From: a phage | Reading direction: 5' to 3' (one strand) | Sequence record: PZ683264.1 | DNA: 40,794 bases | Part shown: piece after piece, positions 2,158 through 34,753 of the stretch | Position numbering within the stretch: the first letter of the stretch is position 1 | Layout: each line of letters opens with the position of its first letter | Notes under the pieces: generated by a model | Told to the model about the DNA's origin: nothing | Seen by the model: only the letters and a program-made list of their open reading frames with translations | Databases searched by the model: none | Made by a program: the position numbers and the translations under genes

Positions 2158-3859
<1,702 letters not shown>

Positions 3860-3900
3860 TAAATATTATAAACTAATTAAAGCCCAGATTAGGAGAAGTC

Positions 3901-7041
<3,141 letters not shown>

Positions 7042-29261: not shown

Positions 29262-30226
29262 TGTATTCTTTAGAGGAATTTAATAATCAAGCAATAAATG
29301 CAGATTTCCAACGTAATAATATGTTTAGCTGCGTTTTTGCGACAACTCCATCAACTAAAAGCTCTTCGTTGATAAGTTCAATTAGCAACTTTTCTTATAA
29401 TAACTTGAGCCTAAATTCAGATTGGTTAGGATTGACTCAAGGCGATATTAATCAGGGAATTACCACGCTAATTACAGCTGGCACACAAAAACTGATAAGA
29501 AAATCAGGGGTTAGTAAATATCTTATTGGTGCCATGAGTCAACGTACAGTTCAAAGTTTATTAGGCTCATTTACAGTTGGTACATATTTAATTGACTTCT
29601 TTAACATGGCATATAACTCATCTGGATTGATGATATATTCTGTAAAAATGCCAGAGAATAGATTATCCTACGAAACTGACTGGAACTATAATTCTCCTAA
29701 TATTCGTATAACTGGGAGAGAATTAGACCCTTTGGTTATTTCATTTAGGATGGATTCAGAAGCATGTAACTATCGTGCAATGCAAGACTGGGTTAACGCT
29801 GTTCAAGACCCAGTAACTGGATTACGTGCTTTACCACAAGATGTTGAAGCAGATATTCAAGTTAATCTTCATGCTCGTAATGGATTGCCTCATACTGCGG
29901 TGATGTTCACTGGATGCATTCCGGTGTCGGTGAGCGCTCCTGAGTTATCATATGATGGAGATAACCAAATAACTACATTTGATGTTACTTTTGCGTATAG
30001 AGTGATGCAGGCTGGAGCAGTTGATAGACAAGCTGCGCTTGAGTGGCTTGAATCTGCTGCTATAAATGGCATTCAAAGCGTTCTCGGAAATAGCGGAGGT
30101 GTTACTGGACTATCTAATTCGCTTTCACGACTTAGTAGATTAGGAGGAACTGCAGGAAGCATTTCAAACATTAATACTATGACAGGAATTGTCAATTCGC
30201 AAAGTAAAATATTAGGAGCAATATAA
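29261..30226 (+). CDS. 54: Baseplate tail-tube initiator gp54
   Basis: 321 aa; followed by a strong bidirectional terminator. Confidence 0.85.
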   Translation: MYSLEEFNNQAINADFQRNNMFSCVFATTPSTKSSSLISSISNFSYNNLSLNSDWLGLTQGDINQGITTLITAGTQKLIRKSGVSKYLIGAMSQRTVQSLLGSFTVGTYLIDFFNMAYNSSGLMIYSVKMPENRLSYETDWNYNSPNIRITGRELDPLVISFRMDSEACNYRAMQDWVNAVQDPVTGLRALPQDVEADIQVNLHARNGLPHTAVMFTGCIPVSVSAPELSYDGDNQITTFDVTFAYRVMQAGAVDRQAALEWLESAAINGIQSVLGNSGGVTGLSNSLSRLSRLGGTAGSISNINTMTGIVNSQSKILGAI

Positions 30227-30230
30227 CAAT

Positions 30231-30260
30231 GGGGACCTTTCGGTCCCCATATTTTTATTT
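30231..30260. terminator. Bidirectional terminator between gene 54 and the convergent minus-strand ORF
   Basis: ggggacc-tttc-ggtcccc hairpin followed by atatttttattt. Confidence 0.75.
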
Positions 30261-30545
30261 ACGGAATGAAATGAAAGCAGCAACTGAAGCAACTAAACCG
30301 TCTTCAATATAAACTTCAATTTTTACAGGAGCTTCTGACTCAAATTTACCTGTTACTACACCCTGAAAAATACTTTCAGTCTGTTCTGGCTTTGAAAAAT
30401 TTTCAGAAGGAAAAATTCCAAACTTTTTATCTGTTCCGAAAATTTTGATAAATTCATCATAAACTGCTTCATTAAAAGCGTTATCAGCAGGAATAACGCC
30501 TTCAACTACAAGTTCTTGACCTAAAAAGCGCAAAGAAGATTTCAT
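30255..30545 (-). CDS. Hypothetical protein (alt.-3 position)
   Basis: 96 aa ORF with ATG start; early-promoter-like motif (GTTTAC, ~17-18 nt, TATAGT) upstream on the minus strand. Confidence 0.6.
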   Translation of the reverse strand: MKSSLRFLGQELVVEGVIPADNAFNEAVYDEFIKIFGTDKKFGIFPSENFSKPEQTESIFQGVVTGKFESEAPVKIEVYIEDGLVASVAAFISFRK

Positions 30546-30576
30546 TTTGTGTTCCTCATGTTATGTCAGTAAGACT

Positions 30577-30606
30577 ACTATAACACAACACGAGGGACTT
30601 GTAAAC
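30577..30606 (-). promoter_or_regulatory. Early promoter-like motif upstream of the 30255..30545 ORF
   Basis: Minus strand GTTTAC, 17-18 nt, TATAGT. Confidence 0.35.
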
Positions 30607-30764
30607 TACATTTTGAACTTTTTAATACGCGTAATAGGCATGCGTCGATTTTATACTGTTTCATCGTTTGAAGAGCAGTATCAAAACAACATTAATGACA
30701 CCAATTGGATTTCCACCCAAGTTTTTAAACTTAACTAATGATAGTTTCTCATTAACACCTATCA

Positions 30765-30964
30765 TTACGATATGCATCATTTTATCGCCCGGCTTAACGT
30801 TTTATTCGTATCACCGCCAGAGGTGTATGTACAAAATCTAAATCCAGGAAGCACGCTTTCTTCGCCGGCTTGAATAGCAAAATTTGTGGTATTTTATGCT
30901 TAGGATTTAAGTTAACAACCGGCGCCGAAGCGCCGTCAAATAATTATGTAATAAGTTCCATGAT
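30765..30964 (-). pseudogene. Frameshifted remnant of the 5' end of an alt-like gene
   Basis: About 200 nt resembling the first ~200 nt of alt (32861-33057), including an identical 21-mer atatgcatcattttatcgccc and a similar start context; translation gives MELIT-stop, and fragments NLNPKHKIPQI and PGFRFCTYTSGGDTN appear in different frames. Confidence 0.6.
30919..30935 (-). terminator. GC hairpin downstream of alt, embedded in the alt-like remnant
   Basis: cggcgc-cgaa-gcgccg stem-loop about 30 nt after the alt stop on the minus strand; absent from the corresponding position of intact alt. Confidence 0.4.
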
Positions 30965-33055
30965 TTATCCTTGAACGAACTTGTAAGGCATGTTTGCAAT
31001 ATCTATGCAAGACGCAATAATTCCAAGAGATGATTCTACTTTCTGTTTAACATTTGATGAAACAAATGATGCAAAGTCAACTCTGTCTTCTATATCACCT
31101 GTCATTGTAACTACTTCACCGGTTTCCATTAAATGGTCTCCGTCATAGATTACCGATTCGGTGAGCTCTTCCGTGGTCATAACTTCAGCTTGAATGAGTT
31201 TTGTATTATTAGATGTTGTTCCGTCATTATTAGAAGCATCAGTTATTTTATTAACTTTGACCATCAATCCACGCGGTAGAATAACTTCAGCTTCTGTTGC
31301 TATTCCGAGACTTCCTGGATATACAACATTAACTTTATGAGCTCCATCAATTGCCCATCCTATTTGAACTTTAACGTATTCAGGATTTTCTTTATACGCT
31401 CTTATTTCGTTTGGATTAATAGTTATTCCTTCTTCATTTTTATCAACTGTTAATTCATTGCGAGCTTCTGGTTCTAAAAGACCAATACCAGCATGTGTGA
31501 TTCCAAAACGTCCAAAAATGATAGGAGTTAAAGAAGTAGATACAAAATTTCTGAAGTAGAACACTTTATTTTTAACTAACGCTTCGTATATAGGAGCAGT
31601 CATACTTTGAGCACGATAAACTGTGATGCCTTCCGGTATGCGGTCACCATTTTCAAAAGCTGAATCTAAGTTATTTATAGCAGATTCAATTTCTTTTTCA
31701 CTCATTACATCATATCGTTCTGGATTGTAACGACCTAAAAGAAGATTATTGATGTCAGTATATCCTGAACCGCAATATTCTCTAATGCCACGCTTTTGTG
31801 ATGGAGTATATTTAGAACCATCGCGGGCAATAGTAATATCAATCATTGGACCAGCACCAATTCCAGAAAAACTGTAAATCATTCGTTTGAGGAATTTAGT
31901 TTTTGCTGCGTTCCAGGAATTTTTAGTTATTTCTTCCCAGACTTCATCTGGTTGTCCTTTACGAGTTTTATTATGTTTATCAAGCCAATTATCTTTATAT
32001 TCTTCAAAGAGTTGATTAACAGCTGCTGTGTATTTCTCTAAACATTTTATTGAAGTAGTTGGTTCATTTTTAATTGCATTAAAAATTACTTCTTTAATTT
32101 TTTCTGAAACTTCACCGACTTGACTCATTGGAAAGAATTTATAATCATAGTGAAGTTCATCTGCCGTTCCTTCAGCAATAATTTTTGCTGCCTTTGTTTT
32201 AGAAGCTAATGAATTAATTCCAATTTTCATTTCTTCTGCTTCGGGAATTAAAGGTGCAGTAGCTGGTTTATTAAAATTAGCTGCTGTAGATTCATACTTA
32301 TGGAATAATTCACTTTCAAATCTAGAAGATTCCAATGACTGACTTTGTGCAATTGCTCTACGGGAAATTTTAACTTTAACGATTACAGCTTGGTCAGAAC
32401 GTTTATCATTTTCTTGTGCAATTGATGCTGCAATTGCCTCATTTTTAGTTACTTGGGCTCCAGTATCTTTATTGATATAAACATCACCGACCTTCGATTC
32501 AACTTTAGTAAAGAGCTCGGTACTAATTTCCGGAACTCCTGGAATGTCTTCTAGTGATACATTTTTGCGATGTATAAGAATATATGCATACTTTTTATCA
32601 TAATCCCAGAGTTCCTTAAGAAGGACGTATCTGCCACCTGAACGACTACGGATAAGTCTATCAGCAATAACTTGAATTTGTCGAGCTTGACCAGCGGTTT
32701 TAGACTTAAGAATACGAAGCATACAAGCATCAATTTTATACTGACGCATTGTTTGCATTGCAACAGTAAAAACCGAATTGATATAATTAATTGGGCTTGG
32801 ACCAAGACCTTTCAATTTAGCAATTGAACCTTTAGCGGTTAATGTAAAAGGAACAATATGCATCATTTTATCGCCCATCTTTAAATCACGATTAGTATCA
32901 CCTCCAGATGTATAGGTACATAAACGAAAGCCTGGTTGTTCAATTGCATCATCAACATGAACTGAAAAAATTTGTGGTATTTTCTTCTTTGGATTTAAGT
33001 TTGTAATCGGAAGAGTAGTATCTTCGTCAAATAATTCTGTAATTAGTTCCATCAT
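30965..33055 (-). CDS. alt: Alt ADP-ribosyltransferase (packaged, modifies host RNA polymerase)
   Basis: 696 aa; position between gene 54 and ligase gene 30; late promoter motif upstream. Confidence 0.85.
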   Translation of the reverse strand: MMELITELFDEDTTLPITNLNPKKKIPQIFSVHVDDAIEQPGFRLCTYTSGGDTNRDLKMGDKMMHIVPFTLTAKGSIAKLKGLGPSPINYINSVFTVAMQTMRQYKIDACMLRILKSKTAGQARQIQVIADRLIRSRSGGRYVLLKELWDYDKKYAYILIHRKNVSLEDIPGVPEISTELFTKVESKVGDVYINKDTGAQVTKNEAIAASIAQENDKRSDQAVIVKVKISRRAIAQSQSLESSRFESELFHKYESTAANFNKPATAPLIPEAEEMKIGINSLASKTKAAKIIAEGTADELHYDYKFFPMSQVGEVSEKIKEVIFNAIKNEPTTSIKCLEKYTAAVNQLFEEYKDNWLDKHNKTRKGQPDEVWEEITKNSWNAAKTKFLKRMIYSFSGIGAGPMIDITIARDGSKYTPSQKRGIREYCGSGYTDINNLLLGRYNPERYDVMSEKEIESAINNLDSAFENGDRIPEGITVYRAQSMTAPIYEALVKNKVFYFRNFVSTSLTPIIFGRFGITHAGIGLLEPEARNELTVDKNEEGITINPNEIRAYKENPEYVKVQIGWAIDGAHKVNVVYPGSLGIATEAEVILPRGLMVKVNKITDASNNDGTTSNNTKLIQAEVMTTEELTESVIYDGDHLMETGEVVTMTGDIEDRVDFASFVSSNVKQKVESSLGIIASCIDIANMPYKFVQG

Positions 33056-33075
33056 ATCCTCTCTAGTGTTTATTC

Positions 33076-33083
33076 TATTTATA
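33076..33083 (-). promoter_or_regulatory. Late promoter core TATAAATA (minus strand) upstream of alt
   Basis: Plus-strand tatttata about 21 nt upstream of the alt ATG; fits Alt being a packaged late protein. Confidence 0.55.
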
Positions 33084-33087
33084 AAAT

Positions 33088-33106
33088 TAAAGGCCCGAAG
33101 GCCTTT
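33088..33106 (-). terminator. Hairpin between the 62-aa ORF and alt
   Basis: aaaggcc-cgaa-ggccttt stem-loop overlapping the ORF stop, followed on the minus strand by aattttata. Confidence 0.4.
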
Positions 33107-33293
33107 AATAATCTATTGGTAAGAGAGTACGATATATTTCAAACTTTGGTCCTTTTTCATAGGCATCAAATGTTTCTGTGAATTTATTATAAGCGTATGC
33201 ATCTACAAATTCGAGAATGACTTGTGATACAGAAGTAGAAACATCTCCACCTTCTTTTTGAGCAACGACAATTGTTTCTAAGTAAGCTTTCAT
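33105..33293 (-). CDS. Hypothetical small protein
   Basis: 62 aa, ATG with GAGGT Shine-Dalgarno; ATGA overlap with the gene 30 stop. Confidence 0.55.
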   Translation of the reverse strand: MKAYLETIVVAQKEGGDVSTSVSQVILEFVDAYAYNKFTETFDAYEKGPKFEIYRTLLPIDY

Positions 33294-34753
33294 AGACCAG
33301 TTACCTCATGAAAATCACCAAATACATCCTCGAATGTATTAGCTTTAGTTTTATCTTCACGTAAACGAATCGCAATCGGAAGAAATAATTTAACGTAATC
33401 AGTGCGGCCGTCAGATTTTAACCAACCATTACATTCGCATTCTAGAATTTTTCCAATATAATAATTTTGGTTTTCCATGATGCGAGTACGGTCAAGTTCA
33501 TGCGATTTTACACCGGCTTTATCTTTTAAGCCTGAACCAGCATTTACTTTAATTTTTCCACACTCTGATTCAAGAATAAATCCACCTGCTTTAGTAGGGT
33601 CTTTACGGTGAGGATAAATTCCTACAATTTTTAAATCAACATCAATTACTTCTTTAAATTTATAGAGATTTTTTGAACGAGCATTTTCCCATAATCCATC
33701 GATATTTTTGAGAATAATACCTTCAAGACCTTGGTCAATATACTTTTTATAAATTACCTTAGCTTCATCTAGGTTATTTACTACCTGGTTTTCAATTAAA
33801 ATTACTTTATCATAGCCTGATGTCATTTGTTCTAGTTTAGAAAAACGTACATCATATTTCAAACGAAATGCAGGAAGACCGTATATTTCTACCAATGGAA
33901 CATAATCCCAGACCTGAAACTTCATGCATTGAGCTTCTTTTTCAGAAATGGTTCCCTTTAAAGATTTATTAGCGATTCCATTAGAAGTAGTACGTGATTC
34001 AGCTACTTCGGCGAATTCTTTGGCTTTACTAATTTCAGGATAAGCATCAAAAAGAAAATCTAGGCCTTCTGGCTCCTTTTTAACTTGCTCATGGTATACC
34101 AATTCGCCATCAATTAACACGCCTTCTGGATGAATCTGGCGGGCTTCAGCGGTCATTTTGATTAATTCTTCCTTAAGAAGATCTAATCCTAGATATTCAT
34201 TACCGGCTCGTGATAAAAGACGAACATCATCTAATTCATCACCTCTGACTTCGGCAAAGCACCGAGCCCCATCAGCTTTTAACTGGGCAAAGGCTGGAAA
34301 TTTGATATTCTTATTAATGCCTTTTTCATCATAAGAACTTGCCAGCATTTGAGGTTGTTCAGGAATTAAACCTGGCCAAACTTTGTTTGCAATAGATACT
34401 GAAGCACCACATTCAAGGTCTCGCATCATCACTCGACGCAAAACTTCAACATCATCTTTTTTACCATCAGTGATATATCCAGTTAATTCCTCAATTGCCG
34501 CATTTCCAGTCAATTTCCGAGTAGCTAACGTGAATTCAATGAAGTCGAGCATATCGGTAAGAGTCAACATTCCAAAACTCTGGGTAGCAATACCCGGTTT
34601 AGGCCATTTCTTGATATAATACTGTAACCCACGAGAATAAGTCAGACGATATACTCGTTTAAGCAATTCATTATCTTTATTCTTTTCAAGAATTGCTTGC
34701 TTCTGCTTAGTTGAACCAATAGATGCTATTTCGTTCAGAATTTTAAGAATCAT
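33290..34753 (-). CDS. 30: ATP-dependent DNA ligase gp30
   Basis: 487 aa; adenylation motif KADGAR (FAQLKADGARCF). Confidence 0.93.
   Translation of the reverse strand: MILKILNEIASIGSTKQKQAILEKNKDNELLKRVYRLTYSRGLQYYIKKWPKPGIATQSFGMLTLTDMLDFIEFTLATRKLTGNAAIEELTGYITDGKKDDVEVLRRVMMRDLECGASVSIANKVWPGLIPEQPQMLASSYDEKGINKNIKFPAFAQLKADGARCFAEVRGDELDDVRLLSRAGNEYLGLDLLKEELIKMTAEARQIHPEGVLIDGELVYHEQVKKEPEGLDFLFDAYPEISKAKEFAEVAESRTTSNGIANKSLKGTISEKEAQCMKFQVWDYVPLVEIYGLPAFRLKYDVRFSKLEQMTSGYDKVILIENQVVNNLDEAKVIYKKYIDQGLEGIILKNIDGLWENARSKNLYKFKEVIDVDLKIVGIYPHRKDPTKAGGFILESECGKIKVNAGSGLKDKAGVKSHELDRTRIMENQNYYIGKILECECNGWLKSDGRTDYVKLFLPIAIRLREDKTKANTFEDVFGDFHEVTGL

Follow-up and report, generated by a model that had tools for sequence, protein, structure and literature searches.

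Probable wreck of a tandem second alt-family gene, cut by a 1699-bp deletion, downstream of alt in a T4-like phage

The DNA analysed here, hereafter the window, is a stretch of 40,794 nucleotides from a T4-like phage (Tequatrovirus; sequence record PZ683264.1). In it, the ADP-ribosyltransferase gene alt is directly followed by a region that we interpret, with a probability of roughly 0.93, as a unitary pseudogene: the wreck of a tandem second alt-family gene that was cut by a 1699-bp deletion and then decayed without constraint, with no protein function likely. Judged by its sequence, the remnant is the orthologue, truncated recently, of a paralogue that diverged long ago and is otherwise functional, not simply a degenerate alt; its moderate resemblance to alt would mostly reflect the ancient divergence of the two paralogues, and not decay.

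Results

The locus

The features of the locus are collected in Table 1. The remnant lies between the alt stop codon and alt.-3, on the same strand as alt, in the place that alt.-1 and alt.-2 occupy in T4. Its start codon (30961-30959) stands 3 nt past the alt stop (30967-30965), and right after this TAA the minus strand reads ATC ATG GAA CTT ATT ACA TAA. The alt gene of the window corresponds to genes named alt or RNA polymerase ADP-ribosyltransferase in the annotation of its relatives.

Table 1. Coordinates of the features of the alt locus in the window
Feature	Position	Strand	Basis or remark
DNA ligase gene 30	33290-34753	minus	
alt.1	33105-33293	minus	
alt, intact ADP-ribosyltransferase, 696 aa	30965-33055	minus	ORF; PF03496 ADPrib_exo_Tox, E = 9e-38, residues 379-628
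alt.-2 remnant, probable pseudogene (equals T4 ORFs alt.-1 plus alt.-2)	30606-30961	minus	blastn against RB14, alignments, tblastn
Nonsense mutation at codon 6, GAA to TAA	30944-30946	minus	remnant alignments
Hairpin CGGCGC-UUCG-GCGCCG, six G-C pairs, UUCG loop	30920-30935	minus	centroid -12.8 kcal/mol
1-nt deletion T5 to T4, frameshift	30879-30882	minus	window only, among 13 remnants compared
1-nt deletion A5 to A4	30800-30803	minus	frameshift dividing T4 alt.-1 from alt.-2
1-nt deletion T5 to T4, third frameshift	30683-30686	minus	shared with IME537 only; breaks T4-type alt.-2 ORF
Deletion junction, single surviving 9-bp repeat copy	30617-30625	minus	1699 bp missing
Early-promoter-like site TTTACA-17-TATAGT, TG-extended	30577-30605	minus	10/12 matches
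alt.-3, 96 aa	30255-30545	minus	ORF; annotated alt.-3 in RB14 and T4; far edge of locus
Genes 48 and 54	end at 30226	plus	

At the far end of the remnant, the early-promoter-like site overlaps the old alt.-2 TAG stop and presumably drives alt.-3; at the matching position, the annotation of phage Lutter lists a 'promoter'. With its right end a short way upstream of the site, the deletion spared the alt.-3 promoter. Between the convergent alt.-3 and gene 54, a hairpin with a 9-bp stem and T runs on both sides (30229-30250) looks like a bidirectional terminator, as which it is annotated in e11/2. At the other end of alt, a C(UUCG)G hairpin (33089-33106, minus strand) overlaps the alt.1 stop, where e11/2 has a terminator annotated, and directly after it, just upstream of alt, stands the T4 late-promoter motif TATAAATA (33083-33076, minus strand). 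The Alt protein of T4 is expressed late and packaged, and the motif fits such late expression and packaging.

Alt itself comes in different lengths, with 696 aa in the window, 697 in RB14 and 695 in AV119, and with 682 in T4 and 683 in e11/2 (the T4 type). Taken along its whole length, the remnant stays below 99% identity to every phage record and comes nearest to e11/2, at 98.3%; the locus therefore looks recombinant, an alt of RB14/AV119 length standing beside a remnant nearest to that of e11/2.

An intact second paralogue in related phages

A megablast search with positions 30200-33300 against 50,697 phage records matched 543 of them; in many, the match is split in two and extends across 4809 bp, against 3101 bp in the window. 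What RB14 has in addition is a gene of 2058 nt, alt.-2 (2646-4703 of the RB14 locus), annotated as 'Alt-like RNA polymerase ADP-ribosyltransferase', which starts 3 nt past alt and ends 60 nt short of alt.-3. Its product (YP_002854530) is an intact protein of 685 aa with a PF03496 domain at residues 416-620, and it aligns end to end with the Alt of the window at 41.6% amino-acid identity. Another Tequatrovirus has likewise been described with two Alt-like paralogues, 43% identical (2026 paper, PMC13600099); a search of the literature for a functional study of a full-length second Alt-like ADP-ribosyltransferase found none. In phages carrying both genes, alt.-2 is probably co-transcribed with alt. 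Across seven phages with an intact copy, nucleotides 1-345 vary at 30 sites, 24 of them third codon positions, and the first 116 codons show just two amino-acid changes, a pattern that clearly points to purifying selection on this part of intact alt.-2. In the window, tblastn with the RB14 protein found alt and the remnant only, and no intact alt.-2 elsewhere.

By blastn, the window and RB14 align collinearly, at 97% identity, through alt and nucleotides 1-348 of alt.-2, down to window position 30617; from 30624 downward it matches the last 19 nt of RB14 alt.-2 and then alt.-3, with 8 nt common to both pieces. The remnant retains codons 1 to about 116 together with the last 19 nt and the original TAG stop (30608-30606); over these two stretches, nucleotides 1-348 and the final 19, its identity to intact alt.-2 is 94-97%. 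The PF03496 domain of the intact protein falls wholly within the missing 1699 bp and, as 1699 is not divisible by three, the deletion by itself shifts the frame. Accordingly, the remnant holds neither an uninterrupted Alt-like ADP-ribosyltransferase ORF of ~685 aa nor the PF03496 ADPrib_exo_Tox catalytic domain.

The junction falls in a 9-bp repeat, which reads CTAAAAAGT in intact relatives and TTAAAAAGT in the window. In RB14, RB10 and KMB23 this repeat is found at both breakpoints, 1699 bp apart, and its left copy is also present in T2, AR1, PhiZZ30 and JB75. All 13 aligned remnants, T4 included, have an identical junction, which in T4 and the window alike reads ...GTA(C/T)TAAAAAGTTCAAAATGTAG at the same position relative to the full-length paralogue. 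Three phages with an intact gene, phiD1, EcNP1 and P922, lack an exact copy of the left repeat, and the substrate for the deletion is thus not universal.

The hairpin inside the remnant

The hairpin stands 30-45 nt past the alt stop, and the earlier note took it to have been acquired within an already decayed copy. This view did not hold: the hairpin sequence is identical in 12/12 remnants and in 7/7 intact alt.-2 genes, in whose products it specifies part of D-G-A-S-A-P-V. Because it is identical in the coding sequence of seven intact genes, the hairpin is older than the death of the gene, and its gain after pseudogenisation is ruled out. Nor did we find support for the idea, put forward in the same note, that the remnant has been reused as a terminator or 3' UTR region of alt. 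The G+C-rich stem-loop expected of an intrinsic terminator is there, but the U-rich tract 3' of the stem is absent, the stem being followed by GTTGTTAA; a terminator scan made no call at 30920-30935, and the 111-nt region around the hairpin folds no better than its shuffles (z = -0.18). The scan and the z-score speak against an intrinsic terminator at the hairpin. Rfam 15 gave no match at gathering score, with a single sub-threshold chance hit elsewhere in the window.

A rival reading would have the remnant kept in cis as RNA, its C(UUCG)G hairpin acting as a stabilising 3' element, or as a weak terminator, for late alt transcripts. The stem, with its six G-C pairs, UUCG tetraloop and -12.8 kcal/mol, is stable; it is invariant in 19/19 copies, as are the first ~100 nt, which would be compatible with a cis-acting role of the 5' part; and similar CUUCGG hairpins stand at other gene ends in the window, namely 33089-33106 (the e11/2 terminator) and 30229-30250. 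CUUCGG hairpins were reportedly first described in T4 mRNAs, by Tuerk and colleagues in 1988. We nevertheless consider this role unlikely. The hairpin lies within the coding sequence of the intact paralogue, and a strong terminator there would block that gene; the missing U tract, the silent terminator scan, the z-score of -0.18 and the lack of an Rfam match all speak against it; and the invariance of the six codons is not significant, being expected by chance with a probability of ~0.25 when 24/116 third positions vary.

The deletion allele is present in about 18% of sequenced Tequatroviruses, T4 included. Loss of a second packaged ADP-ribosyltransferase might have been adaptive, the allele having spread by recombination because Alt.-2 was costly or sensed by some hosts, or else the retained stub with its hairpin might now act as a stabilising 3' element of the alt message; we regard this pair of options as quite improbable. 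Were either of them true, the set of effectors injected by the model phage T4 would not be typical of the genus.

Further decay of the remnant

Besides the deletion, the remnants have gathered lesions of their own. The stop at codon 6 is common to the window, AV119, IME537, SG1, EC128, FN, fPS-90 and ACG-C40 (8 of 12 phages), and is absent from T4, e11/2, F25, Lv5cm and all intact copies. The frameshift in the A run is found in the window, T4, e11/2, IME537, FN, F25, ACG-C40 and Lv5cm (again 8 of 12), and is absent from AV119, SG1, EC128 and fPS-90. The two sets are not nested but mosaic, which implies either that lineages with the deletion have recombined or that homopolymer slippage has recurred. 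FN carries in addition a 9-bp deletion and F25 a 1-nt loss at the junction, so that the remnants overall show a nonsense mutation, four different 1-nt homopolymer deletions and one 9-bp deletion. Of their derived substitutions, 5/12 are nonsense or non-synonymous, which suggests relaxed constraint, albeit on small counts (12 derived changes).

These lesions bear on the possibility that the locus encodes functional small proteins, the T4 ORFs alt.-1 and alt.-2, for example as N-terminal Alt-like fragments that are packaged or modulate Alt. T4, e11/2 and Lv5cm do have two ORFs here, 61 and 67 aa long, whose ribosome-binding context derives from the parent gene, and the first nine residues, MELITELFD, match Alt exactly; such T4-type ORFs could in principle be translated. 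In the window, by contrast, neither survives: the codon-6 stop and two further frameshifts have destroyed both, and what remains are fragments of 25-39 aa. Furthermore, the same stop is found in two thirds of the remnant-bearing phages sampled, and the small ORFs annotated at the locus differ in their boundaries among AV119, IME537, FN, F25, SG1 and T4. A function as small proteins is therefore very unlikely.

Distribution of the deletion and extent of the original duplication

The two forms of the locus were counted with a 101-nt probe centred on the junction and with a probe for the deleted middle part, each at a coverage of at least 80%. The junction is spanned in 91 phage records, among them T4, T4T, RB55, RB59, e11/2, ACG-C40, AV119 and SG1, and the middle part is retained in 402; all ten of the latter that were examined annotate a full-length gene.

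It could be argued that the duplication never went beyond the first part of alt, and that no full-length second gene was truncated. The note in NC_000866.4 speaks of an old duplication covering the first part of alt, and within the window a counterpart exists for the 5' third of alt only. Several findings contradict this proposal, which we hold to be extremely improbable: (i) the missing middle part exists in those 402 records, full-length in 10/10 cases; (ii) the remnant is 94-97% identical to a full-length gene and retains the last 19 nt of alt.-2; (iii) the missing 1699 bp are flanked in intact genes by a 9-bp direct repeat; and (iv) the wording was changed in the later T4T record, which gives a deletion and frame shift in a second alt copy. 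The converse scenario, in which the short form is ancestral and 1699 bp were inserted, is argued against by the end-to-end alignment of the paralogue with Alt.

Relation of the remnant to alt

The region was first noticed through its similarity to alt, and in this respect the earlier note proved right, if modest in extent. It had pointed to ~200 nt after the alt stop that resemble the start of alt. Local alignment of 30540-30985 with the alt 5' region 32500-33075 (both minus strand) scored 240, compared with 56.0 ± 8.8 (maximum 87) for 300 shuffles, and the similarity runs further than had been described, over ~355 nt down to ~30606 (30606-30961), corresponding to Alt codons 1 to about 118. 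Pairwise alignment of 30765-30964 with 32861-33057 gave 141 identical columns out of 186 (76%); the identical 21-mer that had been remarked upon, ATATGCATCATTTTATCGCCC, is indeed present at both 30770 and 32856; and an independent repeat finder returned four collinear blocks with a spacing of 2085-2091 between remnant and alt. As the note had read from the translation, MELIT is followed by a stop and the Alt-like peptides fall in differing frames: tblastn of Alt on the region downstream of alt yields four consecutive segments, in frames 3, 2, 1 and 3, which cover codons 1 to ~118; E values from tblastn were 1e-18 to 1e-27. Chance or low-complexity similarity, for which only the AT-rich composition of this phage DNA could be adduced, is ruled out by the 300 shuffles, the score lying ~21 standard deviations above them, and is contradicted as well by the collinear blocks and the tblastn E values.

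As to its origin, the note had postulated an ancestral tandem duplication of the ADP-ribosyltransferase gene with loss of one copy, and the intact RB14 alt.-2 together with the junction bears this out. It had also supposed that alt.-1 and alt.-2 of T4 arose in the same way, which agrees with their 96.7% identity to the window and their common deletion junction. The description 'decayed copy of alt' stands in one half: the copy is dead, but its degeneracy for the most part does not represent decay from alt, given its 94-97% identity to intact alt.-2.

Discussion

A probable history of the locus

The following course of events would account for the locus. An old duplication would have produced two full-length tandem paralogues, 3 nt apart, whose proteins are now about 42% identical; most Tequatrovirus genomes retain both. 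In the lineage of the window locus and T4, a deletion of 1699 bp between the 9-bp direct repeats CTAAAAAGT, probably by slipped mispairing or by microhomology-mediated illegitimate recombination, would then have removed codons about 117 to about 680, and with them the entire catalytic domain, and put the rest out of frame. What was left would have gained disabling mutations free of constraint, which in the window would be the codon-6 stop and three homopolymer single-base deletions. Most likely without protein function, it may now be a passive transcribed tail of the late alt message, with which it is probably co-transcribed, and it would have been retained since the deletion happened to leave intact both the alt stop on its upstream side and the promoter of alt.-3 on its downstream side.

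The import of this history reaches little beyond annotation hygiene. The small ORFs named 'hypothetical protein' or 'ADP-ribosyltransferase' at this locus in many records would be fragments of a pseudogene, and ought to carry that label. T4 is without the second Alt-like enzyme, and about four in five sequenced relatives carry the part that is deleted in T4; conclusions on injected ADP-ribosyltransferases that are based on T4 may thus not cover the whole genus.

Comparison with known systems

The feature is an ordinary pseudogene, already known from the GenBank notes on T4 and from Nolan et al. 2006. The T4 RefSeq record NC_000866.4 describes alt.-1 plus alt.-2 as the first part of alt, duplicated long ago and since interrupted by a stop codon, and the note in the T4T record states that a second copy of alt carries a deletion and a further frame shift. 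Both ORFs were listed as paralogous alt duplications by Nolan et al. (2006, PMC1524935), who also mentioned duplicates of alt, some partial and some full, in RB49 and 44RR. The breakpoints in the 9-bp repeat, the split of 91 versus 402 records and the extra lesions of the window were not found stated in the searchable literature; they are refinements of a known fact, and no new kind of thing.

Placed beside these systems, the remnant shows the following similarities and differences: (i) T4 alt.-1 and alt.-2 (T4p199 and T4p198 in NC_000866.4; T4Tp203 and T4Tp202 in HM137666) agree with it in locus, in the 1699-bp junction and in the A-run frameshift, with 96.7% nucleotide identity over 419 nt, whereas the window copy bears three extra lesions, the codon-6 stop and two 1-nt deletions. 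(ii) The intact second Alt-like enzyme of RB14, RB51, T2, AR1 and others is its orthologue and likewise starts 3 nt after alt; compared with RB14 alt.-2, the window remnant lacks 1699 bp including the PF03496 domain, and has acquired a stop and frameshifts. (iii) T4 Alt (gpAlt), the packaged mono-ADP-ribosyltransferase, is a paralogue, with the first nine residues identical and the blocks GDKMMHIV and QYKIDAC conserved. Intact alt.-2 and Alt belong to a common domain family; the remnant, at about 68-76% DNA identity to alt, cannot make the enzyme. (iv) RB49ORF183c, 44RRORF188c and 44RRORF187c (Nolan et al. 2006) are also alt-adjacent duplicates, some of them truncated, in phages of different genera.
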